Shown in pieces: positions 1,879-11,120 of a DNA stretch of 43,474 nucleotides (positions within the stretch are counted from its first letter, which is position 1; each line of letters opens with the position of its first letter). The notes under the pieces are model-generated. The model ran no database searches, was not told where the DNA came from, and saw nothing but the letters and a program-made list of their open reading frames with translations. The DNA lies in assembly GCA_010093995.1 (NCBI GenBank), contig ML992517.1, positions 386,677 to 430,150 of the forward strand. Reading direction: 5' to 3'. Both the position numbers and the translations under genes were made by a program. Source of the DNA: Elsinoe ampelina. Its lineage: Eukaryota.

Positions 1879-2282
1879 GGTGAATTTGATGCGCGCTTCC
1901 CAGCGCCAGAGATATGTTATCGCATTGAGTGAGGTGGGTGTGAATGACAAGAAGCAGAGTCGTATACAGCTGGAGCAGCTTTCGAGGTGATGGCTGCTGT
2001 GGCTGGTGGTGGCTGATGGAAAATGTGGCTTGAGAATATGTCTTCGGCTTCGGGAAATGGGGTCCAGTCGGGTCTTTCACTCGGAAATATCAGATGGCAA
2101 GTCAAATCATTCCTCTTCATCGAAGGTCATTCCTGGACACAGCACAGCAAGGCAACAGCTTGTGACAAGAGGGAACCATTCGATCATTCAGTCGTTATAT
2201 CGTACACTTCCTCAGTCGTGAATCACCCTCTGTGGCAATCGAAGCTTTATACAGAAGAAAAATTGCTCGGTCCCTGGTCGAC

Positions 2283-4769
2283 ATGCCGGATCGACGCCCT
2301 GCATCAACAACGGCCGGACAGCGACCTCGATTCCTTTTCCTGGATGCTTATGACTCCTTCACCAACAATATCATTGCTCTGCTTCGCTCATCGTTGCAAG
2401 CTCGCGTCACTGTGATCAAGATAGACGACTCCCGCTTCCTCCATGCTGCTGACAATGTCTTTCACTCCTTCCTGCGGCGTTTTGATGGTGTCGTAGTTGG
2501 TCCCGGGCCTGGCGATCCTCACAACCCAGATGATATCGGTCTCATTGAGAAGCTATGGCATCTCCCGGATAGTATTTGCTTGCCGATCCTGGGCATCTGT
2601 CTCGGATTTCAATCGCTGATTCTAGCATTTGGCGGCACTGTGCTAAGGCTGAAGGAGCCGCGACATGGCGTCATCCGATCCGTCGAGCATCGAGGGACGT
2701 CGCTGTTCGAAACCGTTGGCGAGGTTAGGGCTACGCAGTATCATTCGCTGCATGGTCGGCTTGGGCACGACCTGAAGGACCTGGAATCGTTGTGGGTGCC
2801 GTCCTCCAAGTCATCTGAGCTGGAGCCGTTGGCATGGGATCTTTCGGATGCTGATAATGGGCCGGTGTTGATGGCTGTGCGTCACTCAAGCAAGCCTTTG
2901 TGGGGCGTTCAGTATCACCCAGAGTCGATCTGCACCAGTGCGGGGGGCGCGCAAGTGGTTGAGAATTGGTGGCGGGAGTCTGAGCAATGGAGACGGCGCA
3001 AAATGAAGGCCGGTGTTGAACGGAGAAGCTCTGCTGGTCTTGACAGTGGCTATGTCACCGATACCGACTCCACGCCTTCGACGCCGGGAGTAGCTGAGGA
3101 ATTTGGATCCTTCCCTGGGTTTTCCACTTCAAGAGATCAAGCAAGAGGTCAAGCATTCCAAGCACAGCCATCCTCTGACGTGGGGCGTTCAGGGACGACT
3201 GTACGATGGAAGCACTTGAACTGGAGTTTCGATCTTGACCTTCTGCCATCGTTGTGCGAACTGATCCGTGAAGCCACTGGTAAGCATCCGCTACTGTTGG
3301 AGTCAGGCACCAAGGGAGGACAGCCTGTACGTGCCGAGACAGGTCGCTACAGCGTGCTGGGATTGGTGGAGGAAGATGCAGAGACCTTAAAATATTGGTC
3401 GTCGGCGAGGAGGTTCGAGCGGCGGATAGAAGAAAAGATGGAACTCGACGATTGTAATGTTGCTGAAGCTTTCGATAAGCTGAGGGCATGTGTCTCTGAG
3501 CGGCGAGCTGTTGGAGGTCCGGCAGAGGTGCCATTCTGGGGCGGTCTTGTGGGATATATCTCTTACGAAGCTGGACTGGAGACCATCGATGTGGCACCGT
3601 CATCGGAAGAGGTCGACCTTGCGGATATTTGCTTCGTCTTTGTGCGAAGGACTCTGGTCATTGACCATGTGAAGAAAAGGATCTATGTCCTAGATATCTC
3701 AGAGGATGCTCGCTGGCTTGATGATATGTTTGGTCGGATCGATACTTTGGTTACCCATATGGGGGAGCGGCACGCCTCATTCGGATCGACGCTGGAGAGA
3801 GCTTGGAAGAGTGCCATTTGCCGGCCGGAGGAGAAAGAGTATTGTGAAAAGGTGGCTGTCTGCCAGTCGCATATTCGCGCAGGAGATTCGTATGAGCTTT
3901 GTCTGACAGATCAGTCGACATTGAGCTTTGAAAAAGATGAAAGGCATGCTGTGCCTGATTGCTGGAAGTTGTATTCGCATCTGCGGCTGTCGAATCCTGC
4001 GCCCTTTGGCGCTTTTCTGGATTTCGAAGATGCTTCTATTTTGAGCAGTAGCCCAGAGAGATTTCTGTCATGGTCTCGTGATGGTCTCTGTGAGTTTCGG
4101 CCGATAAAAGGCACTGTTCAGAAGGGTTCTGGTATGACGAGAGAGAAGGCGGAGGAGATCTTGAGGAGTGAGAAGGAGCAGGCGGAGAATTTGATGATTG
4201 TCGATCTGATTCGACATGATTTGAATGGCGTCGTTGGTCTGTGTGATGGGTCGGCTGAAGTGCCAAAGTTGATGCAGGTGGAAGAGTATGCGACCGTCTT
4301 TCAGCTTGTTTCAGTGATTCGAGGTCAGCTTGGATCGCTTGGCGTGACAGATGCTGCTGGAAGAACTGCTGAAAAGGATGTTGCTGGTATGCATGACCTC
4401 CCATCGCCTTCTCTTGGAGTCGATGGTCGTGATGGATTATATGGCGAGGCGAAAGGGGTGCAGGAGGGGCTTTTGACTGGAGTCGATGTTTTACACGCGT
4501 CTTTGCCTCCTGGTAGTATGACAGGCGCTCCGAAGAAGCGATCTTGCGAATTGTTGAAAGAAATCGAAGGCAGGAGGAGGCGGATTTATTCTGGTGTGCT
4601 GGGATATCTTGATGTTGGCGGCGGTGGTGATTTCTCGGTGGTGATACGAAGCGCGATCAGGTACAGGGATGGTTGGCGGATTGGTGCTGGAGGGGCCGTG
4701 ACGGGGCTGAGTGATCCGTTAGCAGAATTCCAAGAGATGATGGGCAAGAGTATGGCCGTACAGTTCTAG
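2283..4769 (+). CDS. ABZ1: Bifunctional para-aminobenzoate (aminodeoxychorismate) synthase, GATase + chorismate-binding domains
   Basis: DAYDSFT, GPGPG, LGICLGFQ, YHSL, GVQYHPES (class I GATase); PFWGGLVGYISYE, GDSYELCLT, SSSPERF, RPIKGT, KEQAENLMIVDLIRHDL, PPGSMTGAPK (PabB/TrpE-like). First ATG at 2283; no intron needed. Confidence 0.96.
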   Translation: MPDRRPASTTAGQRPRFLFLDAYDSFTNNIIALLRSSLQARVTVIKIDDSRFLHAADNVFHSFLRRFDGVVVGPGPGDPHNPDDIGLIEKLWHLPDSICLPILGICLGFQSLILAFGGTVLRLKEPRHGVIRSVEHRGTSLFETVGEVRATQYHSLHGRLGHDLKDLESLWVPSSKSSELEPLAWDLSDADNGPVLMAVRHSSKPLWGVQYHPESICTSAGGAQVVENWWRESEQWRRRKMKAGVERRSSAGLDSGYVTDTDSTPSTPGVAEEFGSFPGFSTSRDQARGQAFQAQPSSDVGRSGTTVRWKHLNWSFDLDLLPSLCELIREATGKHPLLLESGTKGGQPVRAETGRYSVLGLVEEDAETLKYWSSARRFERRIEEKMELDDCNVAEAFDKLRACVSERRAVGGPAEVPFWGGLVGYISYEAGLETIDVAPSSEEVDLADICFVFVRRTLVIDHVKKRIYVLDISEDARWLDDMFGRIDTLVTHMGERHASFGSTLERAWKSAICRPEEKEYCEKVAVCQSHIRAGDSYELCLTDQSTLSFEKDERHAVPDCWKLYSHLRLSNPAPFGAFLDFEDASILSSSPERFLSWSRDGLCEFRPIKGTVQKGSGMTREKAEEILRSEKEQAENLMIVDLIRHDLNGVVGLCDGSAEVPKLMQVEEYATVFQLVSVIRGQLGSLGVTDAAGRTAEKDVAGMHDLPSPSLGVDGRDGLYGEAKGVQEGLLTGVDVLHASLPPGSMTGAPKKRSCELLKEIEGRRRRIYSGVLGYLDVGGGGDFSVVIRSAIRYRDGWRIGAGGAVTGLSDPLAEFQEMMGKSMAVQF

Positions 4770-5329
4770 GACCTTATGGTCGAGACGTGACGAAAGAGTG
4801 ACTCTTCCATCTCCTCATCGACTGAGGCCATGCACTCCCCGTCAATGTACCCCTTCCACATCGCCTGTGAACTGTCAGAACAACTTGTCAGATAATTGCC
4901 ATTGATTGTGCTTACCTGGTACGCTCGCACGTCGAAGTCCAATTTGGCCACCGCCAGCCCAATGGCGATGGCCTCCTTGGACCACGACGGGTGCTTCTTC
5001 ATCTCGTACGACTTCTTGAGCAGCACCATGCCCTCGAGGATGCGTTTGTATCTGGCATCCTTCTCGGCGAAGCTTTCGTCCAGCCGCTGGACCAGCGCCT
5101 CCGCCGCCGACCTCACCGCCGCTTGCCCCACCAAGCGGCGGCGGGTCTGCTGAGCGATACGACGTGTATCAGCAACGACTGGACTCACCTCCGCTACTAT
5201 CTTATCCAGCTCCTTCTCAAGACGTCGGTATGACATCTTGAGAAGGAGCATCTTCTTGAACGTCTTCGCGAGGGTCGCACCGTCCATGCTCTCCCTCACC
5301 TTCTCGATGGAGCTCATGGTGGAGCTCAT
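4766..5329 (-). CDS. Hypothetical helical/coiled-coil protein (~170 aa spliced)
   Basis: Open frame from ATG 5329 (MSSTMSSIEKVRES..) with coding-like codon usage; candidate in-frame 51-nt intron 4915-4865 (GTAAGC..CTGAC..CACAG); no recognisable domain. Confidence 0.55.
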   Translation of the reverse strand: MSSTMSSIEKVRESMDGATLAKTFKKMLLLKMSYRRLEKELDKIVAEVSPVVADTRRIAQQTRRRLVGQAAVRSAAEALVQRLDESFAEKDARYKRILEGMVLLKKSYEMKKHPSWSKEAIAIGLAVAKLDFDVRAYQVSTINGNYLTSCSDSSQAMWKGYIDGECMASVDEEMEESLFRHVSTIRS

Positions 5330-5791
5330 GGTGCTGCTGGTGGTGCTGTATGCTTGCTCTGGTGGCAAGCGCGGTGCTGTGTGAGGAGTTGATGTGTTGT
5401 GAGGGTGAGGTTCTGGGTGAAGCTGTGAAGTTTGTTTGTGGGCAGCCAGTTTCGGAATCTGATGCCAAGGAATTTGCAGAGCTGCCTTGGTCAAGCTTCG
5501 GCCTCTCCCTTGCCATTCACGTACCCTACCCTTCCATTTACTTCCCAACAGCCTTGCCACACTCTTCTGTGCCATGCAAAAGAGCTTCCCCGAGGCCATC
5601 GTGTCCTCCATGTGCACCTTTTGCCTATGATATGTGCATCTCTTGACACATTGTATATCGCGAAGTCGTGGGCCCAATGTTCCTTGACCACGCGTCTGGC
5701 GCTCATCGCCGCGGCTATCTGGCTGTGCCTATTTTAAAATGAGCGTCAGTGCCTGCCCAATCTCCCCTGCCAGCAGCTCCAATGCCTGGAG

Positions 5792-6070
5792 AAATGGCAA
5801 AAAAGTAATGCCTCGTAGAGGGAAGCTCGCTCGAAGCGATCTTGATATTTGGACTGGGAGATGATTAGCATGGTTGCTTTTGTGGTTGTACATGTCACGT
5901 GGTTAGTGAGATCAATAGTGCGCCACGTTATTGACCACTGCCCTCCCCAACTGAGCTATGTTGTCGGAACTCGGCGAGTCAGAGTCGGTCGGACTCAGCT
6001 GGGGATTAGGATGTGGGGCCGTTTAAAATAAATATATACCCATCATCAAGGTCGTGAACCTTGGGGAATT
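5792..6070 (-). repeat. Copy A of a diverged ~270 bp non-coding duplication; candidate structured RNA
   Basis: Shares collinear blocks with 6464-6720: AAATG(G)CAAAAAAG, ACTGGGAG(A)TGATTAGCAT, GTACATGTC, GATCAA.AGT.CGCCA.G.TATTGACC, CCCAACTGAGCTA (5946-5958), AAATAAATATATACCCAT (6026-6043). Confidence 0.85.
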
Positions 6071-6463
6071 TCAGACGCCGGTCGCAAAGGGTCCTTGCGG
6101 CATTCGCTTGTGGCATCCTGCTGCATTGTCCAAGTCATCGTACTGAACCACTCCCTTTTGGGTGATCTTGCTGCACATTTAGTAAATCCTAGGCCATGCT
6201 GCAACACTATCCATCCCTTGGACATGTTGCAGCACTGTTGTCGTCAAGGTCATGTTGTAGTACCACAAAGTCAAGGTTATAGTGCTGCATCATCCTGGCG
6301 GAGCGCAAAGTGCAAAACTTGCGTACCATCTCAGGTACCGGGTGACCATGCAAAAGAATGAGCCGCAAAGAGAAAGAGCGCCTATTGGGATCATCTCAGT
6401 ACCGATGAGTAGCTGCAGGGACACGACCGCCTGGTATACCAGCAATATGGGCGATGTCCGACC

Positions 6464-6720
6464 AAAATGCAAAAAAGAGATTCCTCTGGGGAGATTGTCT
6501 GAAGACGCTCTCGAAAGTCTGTACTGGGAGTGATTAGCATTGTTTTGCAGGTAAGTGTACATGTCTCGTTAGTGTGATCAACAGTTCGCCAAGCTATTGA
6601 CCTCTGTCCTTCCCAACTGAGCTACAACCGGTGCAGCTCCCGTCATTGGGAATTAGGACATGGGGCCGCTCGAAATAAATATATACCCATAAAAGAAAGC
6701 TCGTGGGTCTTGAGGAAAAA
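6464..6720 (-). repeat. Copy B of the diverged non-coding duplication; candidate structured RNA
   Basis: Same blocks in the same order: CCCAACTGAGCTA (6612-6624), AAATAAATATATACCCAT (6673-6690), hairpin 6576-6602. Confidence 0.85.
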
Positions 6721-8326
6721 TGCCTGTCGCGTGCCCAAGACACTGTGTTCTCCATCCCTACTGCTTCCTCATACACAATCATTTACTGTCTCTTCCTCGC
6801 CGTGATCTTGTTATAGTTTAACGAGAGACCCACGATACGTGCATGCATTGCATTGCCTTACCCTTTGCCCTGGGCTCCACCGAGAAGCAGGACATGGTGC
6901 ATTCATCCTCACGGCGCGAGACGACAGGCACGAGGGTTGGTAACAAACACACAAGCATCGCACACTCAGTACGCCTGGCGACCACGGATCCTAATATCTC
7001 TTCCAGCACAAACAGAGGCGACACGATCCAAATCCAGCCACAGAGGTTTGTTCCTTCTCAGATTTCCGGACAAATTGGCTCGACCAGTATTCCCCGATGG
7101 CCCCTAACGCGCCATCCTCGCCAGGAACACAAGAGCCAGGGGCGGATGAATAGGGGCACGTAGGGGACATCATTAAGAGCATGGACATCTATCATAACGG
7201 GCTGGGACAAGGGGTGGTTGTTGTTTGGCTGTCCGATGGTTTGCTGGTGGACACCGGGCGCAAAAAAGCAATCAGGCAGTCAAGATTCAGGCCGTGCTGC
7301 TACTACTCTGGCCGATGTTTGCTTGAAGAAGACTGCAAACATCGATGTCTCTTGCGCGAACATGCCGATGGTAGCAATGATCAGGTCAGGGATGAGTGTA
7401 GACGAAGTGGGCGCCCCCTTTGAAAGGTGTTTGGTCGCGGTCTTGATGTCATAGTAGTTGTAGCTGCTTTTTCTTTCACACCCGCCTGTTTGTTTGTTTC
7501 CGTAGAACCCGTGCAAATGCAGTAGCAAGCAGTTCCTGCAGTGTCTTTCGGTGCTTGTGTATGGACTTTGCCAGTCGTGAGGAAGATTTTGGCGTCGCGA
7601 TCACTTTGTCCATGGCAAGGGGCACACATTATACCGCCAAACTGCATTCATCCGCAATACGCTCGATTTTGATTGCATGAGAACGAGCTCGTTCCGACGC
7701 GCCTTTTGATGGTGAAATCACGCTGTAACACCGCCAGATGATGCTGTGGTGGCTGTTGATGCTAAAAGGCTGCGTTCCAAGCTCGAGACAAGGCTCGAAC
7801 CCCGAGGCTCCAAAGCTCCTTTGCCTCCTCCAGACGGTCTTAATTGGGCTGCATCAGACACGACCAGCAGCAACAGATAGGGAAGCCCCACATACGCTAT
7901 TCCATCTTGTGTCGGCGCCTATGGCGGCAATGCCCGCTGTAGTGTGGCTAGTGTGGCGTCTTTGTCTGTGTTGACACGGCATGAGCTGGACGAGACATCC
8001 TTCCCCGACCCGTCTCCGTCAAGCATTCCCATAGACACACTTGCAACTCCAACGATGTCGGACATACCAGCAACAGAGGCTACAGTCTTTCATAGACCAG
8101 AAGAAGGACGAAGAGGTACCAAGGTCGAGTATGACAGCCGGCAGTATCAAGAAGAGACAGCGCCCACGGCCGGAGACGATGTCCAGAACAGAAAAAGTCC
8201 ACCAGTGCTATAAAGGTCTGCAGGGAACCGGGGCGGCGACAAAGGGCTCCATCACCATGATGGCATCAGCATCCATTGGCCTGAACGACACGATGGAATA
8301 GTCAGAAGCCACTTCGACCGAGACAG

Positions 8327-8390
8327 CGACTTCGAACAGGGCGGCGGCTACTCCGAGAGGGGCGGCGACTTCGAGAGGGGCGGCGACAGC
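8327..8390 (+). repeat. Short imperfect 18-bp tandem repeat (GACTTCGAGAGGGGCGGC-like, ~3 units)
   Basis: gac ttc gaa cag ggc ggc / ggc tac tcc gag agg ggc ggc / gac ttc gag agg ggc ggc gac; translates as DFEQGG-GYSERGG-DFERGGD. Confidence 0.6.
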
Positions 8391-10314
8391 ATGGGTTCAT
8401 CACACGCCAGCGCCATGTATACTATACTGCGAAGCGACTCCACCAAGGTCGACCACTGTCATTGGCATGAACGAGACGGACTTCCCAAGGGATCTCCACA
8501 CTAAACAAAAATTCCCTACAACTCCACCAGACCCCTCGGGATGCGGATGGGCAAGCGACAACGTCAGGGCGAGTCTATCCTGGAGGAAGCAGACAGCTGC
8601 ATGCCCGCAACTAAGCCACCCGGCTCCATCGTATCATCAGTGCAAGAAGAGTCGCAACCAGCCCACAGCTCATGTCCCCTCAAAGGCAAGAGCATGCGAT
8701 GGCATCGACGTCAGAATCTCCAACACAATTCCGCCGGCCGGGGTTTCGAAGGTTGTGGACAGCTATTGGCGATCGGGTCTGCGTACCAAGGCTTGAGATC
8801 GATGTTGTGTAGCAATACACAGGACTCCGTTGCGGATGCTAGCGAGCAACCAGATGCAGTAAAGACTTTCTTGGAGCGGTCCCCCGAACGACATATGGCG
8901 ACTCTCCGAGATATAATCGGCATTGATGGCCGACCCGGGTACACGTTGCAGATGAAGAAGACCGAGTGCATTGCTGGCAAACAAATACAGCAGCCGTATT
9001 GCGTTCAAAGAAGGACGAGGTACAATACATGGTGCTCAGTTGCCTTGGACTGAATGCCCGACTACAAGGTCGGAAGTGTGGGGTGGCCGTGTCACTCCTC
9101 TAGACAGGTTTCGCGCCAAATCGCACACGGTTCAAGTGGACGAGTGTACCCAACAGGAAGCAAATAGCAACAACAGTCCTCTTCGATGTCGGGCCCGCGT
9201 GGATACACCTCCATCTCGTGGGATGGGGGACCGGGTTTGTGCTTGCCGGCTAGCTTGGGTGGACAACCAGCGTTTGGGTATGCGATGGTGTGGACCCATG
9301 AAGATACCAACACTATCACACATGAAGTAGCGAGGTGGGACGGCCGGGTTTTCGCATCCCCATTGTCCTCAATCAGACTCATCCCTCGCATCCGGCCATG
9401 CTCATCATTGACCGAAGGCTTCGGCCCAGGAGGTTGGCCACAGGATGTATCTCTGTCGCACCCGGCTCGGATGGCGCAATCAATCCCCACCAGAGGCTTG
9501 CCGAGGCGCCCCAGTCTATGTCTGTCCTCGACTCAAGTGATCAAGCCTAGATGGGCTCCGACAAAATACCACAGAAAGGGGCAGACACATGCCCACCAGG
9601 TATCTACTGTGACAAGCTCAAGTTGGAGAGCAAGCATGGGTCCGTCGTCGACCCAGATTGCTATGTGGAGAGGTCGCACAGGTACCTGGCCTCGACATGG
9701 GTGGCCAGATGCTGATGAGATCGGTCCCGAATGCGGTCCAGGCTAGAGAGCAGGCATGTGCCCATCCTAGACCCTCGAAAGTCGACCTCGAGGTTGGCCA
9801 GGACGAGGCTACAGATCGACACCACCATATACTCAAGTGTTTGCTCCTGATAAGACGCTGGTGTTGAGCACTAGACGATGCCCCCCATCATGGCGTGGTA
9901 CAGCCTGGGCATACCTTCTGATAGATGTCGTTGCCATGTGGTCTTCGAAGCCGGCGCCACATTCGTTGTCTTCTGCATCGTCGATATTACTGTCCTTTGT
10001 TCGTTGATATTACTCCAACCATCGGTAGGTGCCAAGATGCAGAGTTGTCCCACGACCGGGACCAAAGCAGTCGTCGCACCGAGGAAGATGGCTTCGCCGA
10101 CGTTGTTCCCGACAACACTCGATCAACCACTCGAGGCTGTTGACATTCATCGGACCAAGGCCTAGATCCAGTATGTCCATCCAAGCAAGTAGATCCGTCC
10201 AAGTGTTCCGGTAAGGCCAGTTCCTGGAAGACCGAGAAAGAAAAGACATGGACAAACAATGATAAGAAGCAAAGACGAGAAACACTGAAGAGGGAAAGGG
10301 GTATGTTTGGTCTG

Positions 10315-11120
10315 CTACCAGAAACGCCATATGAAAAAGAAGAGTATTATAAAACCCAAAGCAGCAAAAGGACCATACTGGATCGAGGTTAAGAGTCGCC
10401 ACCATGGAGTATGTATCGCCACGCACCTGTTGTATGAGCAGTTGCCAGTTGATCCTCACTGCTGCTCTCTTGTACTTTTTGCTCGCATCTCTTAACTCGC
10501 TGCTCATTGTTCCCATTCTTTCGAGGGAGTCGCCGCGGTATAAAAGATCTTCCAAGTTCTTCGACATGATCTGTGTTGTTTCCTTGAGTTGCGCCTGTAC
10601 CTTGTCGAGGTTGTTGGATGCTCTTGGATTCTCATACGACTTTTTCGTCCTTTGGATGAAAGTGTCAAAGTCGTTGAAGGCGTATGGCCTCAATGTTGCT
10701 GATCGGTACTCGGTGTCCTTATGGGTGTTGAGGAACTCGGCAGCAATGTCGTCGAGGTATATGGTCGCAAGCTCTTTCGGAAAGGAACGCTCAGTGATTG
10801 CGAAGAAGACCAAGTCTTCGTGTCGGTAGTAGCTGAGCTTGTCAGTATAGCGCAAGCTTGTCGAGACTGTAGGCCTACTGAAGCTTGTAGTTGCCTGTCT
10901 CAATCGCAGCTCGAGGTTCCGAGGTGTTGGTCATCTTTCTGATGATCGAGCGTTGTTGGCCTTTGACTTCGTTGATCTCTCGGTCCGTCTATCATTCCTC
11001 TTAGTATCACGAGCTGCGCTGTGCCCGTGATGGGTGTGATTTGCCTACCGATTGGTCCTCGACGGATGCTGCGAGCATGAGACCATCGAGGCGGACGATT
11101 TGTGTCGAGTAGATTGGCAT
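10315..11120 (-). CDS. SEC22: ER-Golgi R-SNARE Sec22 (longin + synaptobrevin + TM anchor)
   Basis: MPIYSTQIVRLDGLMLAASVED start; introns 11048-10989, 10878-10833 and ~10426-10378; RPYAF..FDTFIQ, IMSKNLEDLLYRGDSLE; C-terminal TM segment YGPFAALGFIILFFFIWRFW*. Confidence 0.96.

Follow-up and report, generated by a model that had tools for sequence, protein, structure and literature searches.

In yeast, the genes for the U6 snRNA, the SRP RNA and the RNase P RNA are transcribed by Pol III and have an upstream TATA box. The locus described here, a duplicated element in the plant-pathogenic fungus Elsinoe ampelina, resembles such TATA-type fungal Pol III genes in that a TATA-like block precedes a 5' stem by ~25 nt, an A-box-like sequence is present and the conserved unit ends with a run of six T. 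It differs from them in that there is no Rfam match, the spacing to the A-box-like sequence is variable (49-68 nt), there is no B box and a public sequencing contig, of a run whose type is guessed, crosses both ends. A second group of relatives is formed by fungal Pol II structured leaders with upstream or small ORFs. Like these, the locus has a TATA block and a stable hairpin near the predicted 5' end; one copy has a short ORF at the first ATG, and a larger gene follows on the same strand. Unlike these, the whole front end is duplicated here with both copies kept, and the ORF is an orphan with a single homologue. Third, as far as the available part of the source describes them, the AfuSINE2 families of Aspergillus fumigatus, which are tRNA-derived SINEs, carry target-site duplications of 4-14 bp (PMC5063351). 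The likeness lies in a short, non-coding-looking unit with a tRNA-like A-box sequence; the AfuSINE2 copies are dispersed, whereas here there are no such duplications, two copies lie next to each other and the repeat reaches upstream of the presumed start.

The element was first pointed out in a reading of the sequence without database searches (the sequence-only reading), which proposed a structured RNA transcribed from the minus strand. We analysed it within the whole stretch of 43,474 bases (the window). The feature is real and probably functional, but its kind is most likely an ordinary one: we find it more likely to be the duplicated start of a small orphan gene than a new Pol III RNA or a SINE.

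The duplicated unit and its conservation

The two copies, A and B, are head-to-tail direct repeats of ~290-300 nt each, with ~370 nt between them (Table 1). In a blastn search of the window, positions 5792-6085 align with 6465-6730 at 68% identity over 298 columns (E 1.6e-31), and the repeat search gives blocks of 57 nt (86%), 44 nt (86%), 23 nt (78%) and two of 14 nt (93%) at offsets of 647-672, which bears out the description of two diverged copies about 670 bp apart. The unit is located in a gene-poor interval between the gene P0010 and a Sec22-like ORF. The start ATG of P0010 is 181 nt beyond the end of copy A, on the same strand; the protein has 99% identity with an Elsinoe ampelina hypothetical protein, and its Elsinoe batatas orthologue, P0011, is 86% identical.

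Table 1. Positions in the window of the repeat units, their motifs, hairpins and ORFs, the neighbouring genes and the contig over copy A
Feature	Position	Strand	Remarks
Copy A, whole repeat unit	5792-6092	minus	blastn; last ~7 nt of similarity added by eye
Copy B, whole repeat unit	6464-6738	minus	repeat search and blastn
TATA-like block, copy A	6026-6043	minus	18/18 identical to copy B; GGGTATATATTTATTT at 6026-6041
TATA-like block, copy B	6673-6690	minus	18/18 identical to copy A; GGGTATATATTTATTT at 6673-6688
Hairpin 1, copy A	5941-6011	minus	z -2.70 minus, -0.58 plus; 3' arm carries the D-arm-like 13-mer
Hairpin 1, copy B	6607-6658	minus	z -3.92 minus, -2.96 plus
A-box-like 13-mer TAGCTCAGTTGGG, copy A	5946-5958	minus	
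A-box-like 13-mer TAGCTCAGTTGGG, copy B	6612-6624	minus	
Hairpin 2, copy A	5910-5936	minus	alone z -0.77
Hairpin 2, copy B	6576-6602	minus	alone z -1.49
ORF P0002, copy A	5729-5893	minus	54 codons and stop, from the conserved ATG; holds the ATGCTAATCA/CTCCCAG block and T6
ORF P0001, copy B	6290-6562	minus	90 codons and stop, from the conserved ATG
T6 run, copy A	5799-5804	minus	marks end of conserved unit; codons 30-31 (TTT TTG) of the ORF region
T6 run, copy B	6471-6476	minus	
PABA-synthase-like ORF	2166-4769	plus	
Gene P0010, 241 aa	4766-5611	minus	next gene 3' of copy A; annotated ATG at 5611
Sec22-like ORF	10010-10930	minus	family name from reading of the sequence
X1 contig, 283 nt, depth 4.3	5751-6033	not given	colinear over copy A, no joint

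Conservation between the copies comes in blocks. Along the minus strand, identity is 18/20 over the TATA block and 16/20 over the next 20 nt, low across the loop of hairpin 1, 47/60 across the 3' arm of hairpin 1, hairpin 2 and CACTAAC, and 26/40 around a conserved ATG; it then amounts to 18/40 and to 25/40 up to and through the T-run, past which it is at background (8-9/20). The similarity ends ~8 nt past the T-run. Beyond this run the local alignment score (15.5) is below the shuffle mean of 19.6 and is equalled by 276 of 300 shuffles, and the flanks of the two copies give no alignment on either side. At its other end the repeat takes in the TATA block and ~50 nt upstream of it, weak similarity extending ~45 nt on the plus-strand side of the block. 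Since blocks of 86-100% identity last while the flanks no longer align, we infer from the sequence that both copies are under selection. Of the eight differences between the copies in the 57-nt block, four are transversions; RIP was considered as the source of the differences and dropped, as a set of which half are transversions is not RIP-like.

All motifs listed in the sequence-only reading were found in both copies on the minus strand. When up to 3 mismatches to GGGTATATATTTATTT are allowed, 0.09 matches are expected, and none of 100 shuffles gives 3 matches; the block reads as TATA in both directions. The A-box-like 13-mer TAGCTCAGTTGGG is, we assume, identical to a common tRNA D-arm sequence. 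Also common to both copies are GGTCAATA..TTGATC, CACTAAC, GACATGTACA, ATGCTAATCA, CTCCCAG and TTCGAG.

No third copy was found by blastn in the window, where a covariance model built from the hairpins scores only its two training copies, the next best match having 8.2 bits (E 1.3). A metagenome scan with a 27-nt degenerate pattern from hairpins 1 and 2 returned 0 matches. The C-terminal 422 residues of the PABA-synthase-like ORF served as a synteny query; in the best 80 of 234 confirmed fungal and bacterial metagenome loci, which are too distant to be informative (28-60% protein identity; 633 kb), blastn and nhmmer with the unit gave chance-level matches only (E >= 0.3). The partial texts covered by our literature search hold no report of such an element in Elsinoe.

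Secondary structure and strand preference

Hairpin 1 is found in the minimum-energy fold of both copies. In copy B its 3' arm is as in copy A and its 5' arm is rearranged and bulged, and the spacing of the arms differs by ~19 nt between the copies. Hairpins 1 and 2 together have z scores of -2.09 (A) and -3.78 (B) on the minus strand and of -0.60 (A) and -0.75 (B) on the plus strand. The RNAalifold consensus reaches -23.6 kcal/mol on the minus strand, with 25 shared pairs, versus -12.1 on the plus strand. By itself, hairpin 2 does not outdo shuffles on either strand, the whole elements of 200-226 nt do not differ significantly from shuffles (z -1.90 and -1.37), and the 3' halves of the two copies have no helix in common. 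Thus, the structured RNA of the sequence-only reading holds in folding energy for hairpins 1 and 2 on the minus strand, but not for the whole elements.

The helices named in that reading do form, and on the minus strand seven G-U pairs are their only departures from Watson-Crick pairing, a count that is partly circular because the helices were picked with G-U allowed. The comparison of the two strands provides an unbiased test, which the earlier strand argument passes for the 5' part only. In the consensus, 50 of 50 cells are paired; 7 of the 25 pairs vary, 0 are broken and 2 are changed on both sides. As had been claimed, pairing is kept between the copies (all seven varying pairs still pair) while the loops differ, that of hairpin 1 in particular; as covariation, this pattern from two sequences is powerless, 114 of 500 shuffles being its equal. 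We conclude that both copies have retained a minus-strand structure of RNA type, which lies downstream of the perfectly conserved TATA-like block.

tRNA genes, Rfam families and Pol III promoters

ARAGORN found 0 tRNA genes in the whole window and no cloverleaf. Of 4227 Rfam families none reaches its gathering score in the window. At E up to 10, positions 4500-8000 give no match to the tRNA family, the D-arm-like 13-mer being the only likeness, and three weak matches to other families; one of them is inside the element, to sR32 (an archaeal snoRNA model) on the plus strand, with 11.9 bits against a gathering score of 40. The statement that the element is not an intact tRNA is confirmed by the ARAGORN result and the lack of a tRNA-family Rfam match; the proposed relation to tRNA fails on the same ARAGORN result and on the lack of any Rfam match on the minus strand. 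H/ACA and C/D snoRNA layouts and the TPP riboswitch were dropped by reading, since their boxes are either missing or unconserved and Rfam gives no match.

The A-box-like 13-mer follows the TATA block at a distance of 68 nt in copy A and 49 nt in copy B. In Pol III genes the A box is expected at +8 to +20; with the spacing found here, the 13-mer cannot cooperate with the TATA block to fix a single start site as in known Pol III promoters. No proper B box was seen in either copy, where TTCGAG alone stands at the B-box place, ~115 nt (A) or ~100 nt (B) beyond the 13-mer, and the two TTCGAG words are unaligned between the copies. The base of hairpin 1 (6011 and 6658) is 15 nt past the end of the TATA block (6026 and 6673) and ~21-27 nt from the TATATA core. 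This geometry would match the Pol III type, in which the TATA box lies about 25-30 nt ahead of the RNA start, if the RNA began at the base of hairpin 1, and T6 is present in both copies. Of the Pol III architecture of the sequence-only reading, the TATA block, the A-box-like word and T6 are present, but a coherent promoter is not supported, with a variable spacing and no B box; its interpretation, a structured minus-strand RNA under a Pol III-like promoter, is partly supported.

Such an interpretation can be put in two forms. First, the copies may be a pair of paralogous, Elsinoe-specific structured ncRNA genes of ~185-215 nt on the minus strand, transcribed by Pol III (TATA-directed, U6-type) or by Pol II. 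Each RNA would extend from ~25 nt past the TATA block to T6, the ORFs would be accidental and the corresponding E. batatas "protein" would be mis-annotated. The strongest argument for this is a conserved unit that runs from ~50 nt before the TATA block to the T-run, where identity to E. batatas drops as well; the position of the hairpin 1 base relative to the TATATA core and the minus-strand fold preference with its seven kept pairs and two two-sided changes also argue for it. Against it stand the lack of an Rfam family, a 13-mer that is too far and too variably placed from the TATA block, a sole and unaligned stand-in for the B box, the whole-element z scores together with 3' halves that share no helix, and the powerless covariation. 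With the points from the ORFs and contigs given below, we consider this pair of RNA genes, a weakened form of the earlier proposal and the main rival of the gene start favoured in the Discussion, doubtful. Second, and unlikely in our estimate, the element would specify an undescribed Elsinoe-specific structured RNA of ~200 nt, a minus-strand product bounded by the TATA block and the T-run, with a 5' stem-loop whose 3' arm comes from a tRNA D arm and with conserved CACUAAC and GCUAAUC boxes that mimic branch sites. Its promoter would be Pol III-like and TATA-directed, CACUAAC and GCUAAUC would be single-stranded, and the E. batatas protein would be a mis-call.

The branch-like CACTAAC and GCTAAT..CAG are conserved in both copies, and the sequence-only reading had offered, as its alternative, a branch point and 3' splice site of a spliced gene. 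By reading, no GTNNGT-type donor conserved in both copies was found. With no conserved 5' splice site, and with a contig (run type guessed) that is colinear over copy A, this alternative finds no support.

The other proposal of that reading, a tRNA-related SINE, belongs to a wider explanation in which the copies are what is left of a mobile element: a SINE of tRNA origin, or a miniature LTR element whose two LTRs they would be. Direct copies of ~290 nt at a distance of ~370 nt would suit it, and so would a 13-mer that presumably equals a common tRNA D-arm sequence and an E. batatas homologue which, from its locus tag, is maybe at another locus. However, the longest repeats in the flanks are of 5 and 4 nt, which 253 and 457 of 500 shuffles match or beat, so that no target-site duplications are seen; the limits of the repeat have no A-rich tail, TG..CA ends, primer-binding site or polypurine tract; there is no cloverleaf; and the differences between the copies are not RIP-like. 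Neither the window (blastn and covariance model) nor the best 80 of the 234 distant loci nor the metagenome scan holds a further copy. In addition, the TATA block and the ~50 nt ahead of it belong to the repeat, and a retroposed Pol III transcript would not carry them. A mobile-element relic is very improbable.

Small ORFs and the Elsinoe batatas homologue

In both copies an ORF begins at the ATG that lies within the invariant 10-mer GACATGTACA; in copy A this is the first ATG past the TATA block. The ORF takes in the T6 run as well as the block that resembles a branch point and 3' splice site. Although the copies have several indels between the conserved ATG and T6, the net length difference over this part is 3 nt.

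The product of the copy B ORF, P0001, has a hydrophilic N-terminal part and a hydrophobic tail. P0001 is itself an entry of the protein collection searched, and its sole relative there is P0004 (KVT40_006001), a hypothetical protein of 66 residues from E. batatas (E 2.7e-12, 53% identity, 88% of the query; E 3.4e-37 against a three-sequence profile). The alignment opens with 29 identities in the first 35 residues, continues with an in-frame gap of 13 residues and ends with the hydrophobic tail, which has ~11 identities in 26 residues and many conservative exchanges. In copy B, TGCTAATCA..CTCCCAG reads N-A-N-H-S-Q and T6 reads F-L, and both are retained as amino acids in E. batatas. In E. batatas the ORF stays open over 66 codons and the gap of 13 codons is in frame, which tells against the pair of ncRNA genes. 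The split between the copies looks older than that from the E. batatas sequence, judging by the sequences, because copy B and E. batatas share 29/35 residues and copies A and B ~45%. In E. batatas, the tags of the homologue (006001) and of the P0010 orthologue (006156) are 155 apart on one contig of 1.92 Mb, so the two genes may not be adjacent there, which would mean either a rearrangement or a further family member elsewhere.

Several observations fit accidental ORFs. CTCCCAG is common to both copies but in different reading frames, tblastx of copy A against copy B puts no frame clearly above the other two, and both copies have a second open frame, of 69 and 76 codons. Long ORFs are common locally: of the 189 ATGs in 5729-10000, 20.6% open at least 54 codons and 6.3% at least 90. 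The conservation in blocks without a favoured frame and the local frequency of long ORFs are points in favour of the ncRNA genes. Identity to E. batatas drops at the T-run, from 29/35 to ~11/26 residues.

P0002, the ORF of copy A, has no match in the protein collection, and Pfam gave nothing above the cut-off for seven translations. The Atlas model of P0001 is poor (pLDDT 0.47), and its best feature score, 0.75, is below the lead level. An exhaustive profile search of 1.84 billion representatives gave seven proteins with E up to 0.001, among them P0001 and P0004 themselves; the other five, all repeat proteins, were judged spurious, matching on an LP.GI..L.FG-like motif.

Public sequencing contigs

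Seven runs from three studies match parts of 4000-8500, and four of them were compared, as contigs that carry neither strand nor true ends; the run types are guesses. Depths of 2.2-192 on single-copy DNA make run X1 look like RNA rather than DNA, which is likewise a guess. The X1 contig over copy A has one end inside the TATA block and the other 41 nt beyond the repeat end (5792), 48 nt beyond T6, and further contigs lie toward P0010 at 5189-5398 (X1) and 5436-5724 (X6). A 4544-nt X1 contig of depth 192 extends from 6668, 5 nt from the TATA block of copy B, to beyond 8000. Positions 6034-6667 have no coverage in the contigs of the four runs, which proves nothing. There are no joints and no loose ends in these contigs and no splicing at the CTAAT..CAG block, the run type being guessed. 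Taken at face value, and with the same guess as to run type, the contigs misfit a discrete RNA from the TATA block to the T-run and are compatible with a longer Pol II transcript; for the pair of ncRNA genes, it is a further difficulty that a contig, of guessed run type, extends past both predicted ends.

The deep contig that stops 5 nt from the copy B block also bears on another explanation, in which the unit is a regulatory element at the DNA level, or a mixed one, without an RNA of its own. The AT-rich block would be a poly(A) signal or a TATA box facing the plus direction, and the rest would be duplicated promoter DNA. As a 3'-end or poly(A) signal, the block would serve the transcription unit that lies upstream of it on the minus strand. 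Yeasts are known to use efficiency elements of the UAUAUA type in 3'-end formation; this, the reading of the block as TATA in either direction and the weak similarity over ~45 nt on its plus-strand side suit the explanation. However, the hairpins favour the minus strand as RNA, unlike a DNA site, and the ~19-nt difference in arm spacing of hairpin 1 is a poor match to a dimeric binding site. Moreover, the contig of copy A is on the downstream side of the block, not upstream, and the ends of contigs with no given strand are not the ends of transcripts. We regard such a DNA element as quite improbable.

Discussion

We tentatively favour a duplicated Pol II gene-start module, consisting of a promoter, a structured 5' leader and the start of a small ORF, and give it a little short of an even chance. 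Two such modules would follow each other head to tail on the minus strand, each comprising ~50 nt upstream, the invariant TATA block, a two-hairpin leader of ~130-150 nt and the first ~33 codons. Transcription would start ~25-40 nt past the TATA block, thus placing hairpin 1 at the 5' end of the mRNA. The hairpins may act in cis on translation or stability, and the ORF would be translated. Copy B would head the 90-codon ORF that is retained in E. batatas; copy A may have become the promoter and leader of P0010, its 54-codon ORF serving as an upstream ORF.

What suggests this module is the ATG of GACATGTACA, which opens ORFs in both copies, together with the P0004 homologue. We also counted in its favour that N-A-N-H-S-Q and F-L are kept in E. 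batatas, that the copies differ by a net 3 nt between the ATG and T6, that the hairpins favour the strand of the ORF, and that the element belongs to no known RNA family and is no tRNA. At the level of the locus, a gene on the same strand follows copy A, and contigs (run type guessed) tile most of the interval.

Several points were counted against the gene-start module. Between the copies, the leader is better kept (47/60 and 34/40) than the ORF part (18/40 and 25/40). The frames of CTCCCAG differ, tblastx favours none, a second frame is open and ORFs of these lengths are common. The similarity of the copies and the identity to E. batatas both fall at the T-run, as expected if the functional unit ended there. 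P0002 has no database match, Pfam gives nothing, the Atlas model is poor and the remaining profile hits are spurious. The contig of copy A starts in the TATA block (6033), upstream of any TATA-directed start, and the E. batatas homologue and the neighbour's orthologue may be non-adjacent.

If the gene-start module is the true reading, the finding would be an ordinary, tidy duplication of a promoter and leader, reused beside another gene in a plant-pathogenic fungus, and it would be of some use in annotating small orphan genes and their leaders. If instead the non-coding reading is true, the locus would hold a small, lineage-specific RNA whose promoter layout is unusual; to our knowledge, almost no such RNAs have been described in this group of fungi. 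On either reading, the locus shows that the start of a Pol II gene can come to contain a TATA box, an A-box-like word and a T-run.

Sequence elements within and between the repeat units

The motif TTCGAG is present twice in copy B, one of two head-to-tail repeat units on the minus strand, and the second occurrence lies immediately after the TATA block, where copy A reads TTTAAA. The spacer between copies A and B contains a perfect 10-nt inverted repeat, placed within what is presumed to be the 3' UTR of the 90-codon open reading frame (ORF) of copy B.

Coordinates of the sequence elements and the public contig in the window
Feature	Position	Strand	Details
Inverted repeat, TGCTGCAACA / TGTTGCAGCA	~6205-6245	minus	perfect, 10 nt; loop ~21 nt
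TTCGAG, first in copy B	6510-6515		
TTCGAG, second in copy B	6669-6674		
Public contig, run X1	6668-~11200		single contig, 4544 nt; mean depth 192; right end assumes full colinearity

The neighbouring gene and its Elsinoe batatas orthologue

P0010, the hypothetical protein encoded downstream of copy A, may truly start at a downstream methionine (~5335), judging from the sequence. Its N-terminal 92 residues as annotated (5336-5611, minus strand) resemble a CA-rich leader, and the second methionine cluster, which follows this leader-like stretch, has a good start context. Against E. batatas, a 26-residue run at this cluster is identical, compared with an identity of only ~72% over the first 40 residues. 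At the other end, the stop of the P0010 open frame overlaps that of the convergent, plus-strand PABA-synthase-like ORF at 4766-4769; the annotated P0010 has a different end and a spliced C-terminus.

In E. batatas, the homologue of the 90-codon ORF (P0004, KVT40_006001) and the orthologue of P0010 (P0011, KVT40_006156) are both on one contig of 1,924,158 bases; given these locus tags, the small-ORF homologue may not adjoin P0011, the counterpart of the gene that neighbours the ORF in E. ampelina.

A deep contig extending rightwards from copy B

The contig from run X1, a public sequencing run, is colinear with the window from its start to at least position 8000, and if colinearity holds over its full length, the contig extends as far as the Sec22-like gene (10010-10930, minus strand). 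Within 6668-10000, stop-to-stop frames reach at most 192 codons, and no match to Pfam was obtained. This suggests either a long UTR or a long non-coding transcript missing from the annotation.
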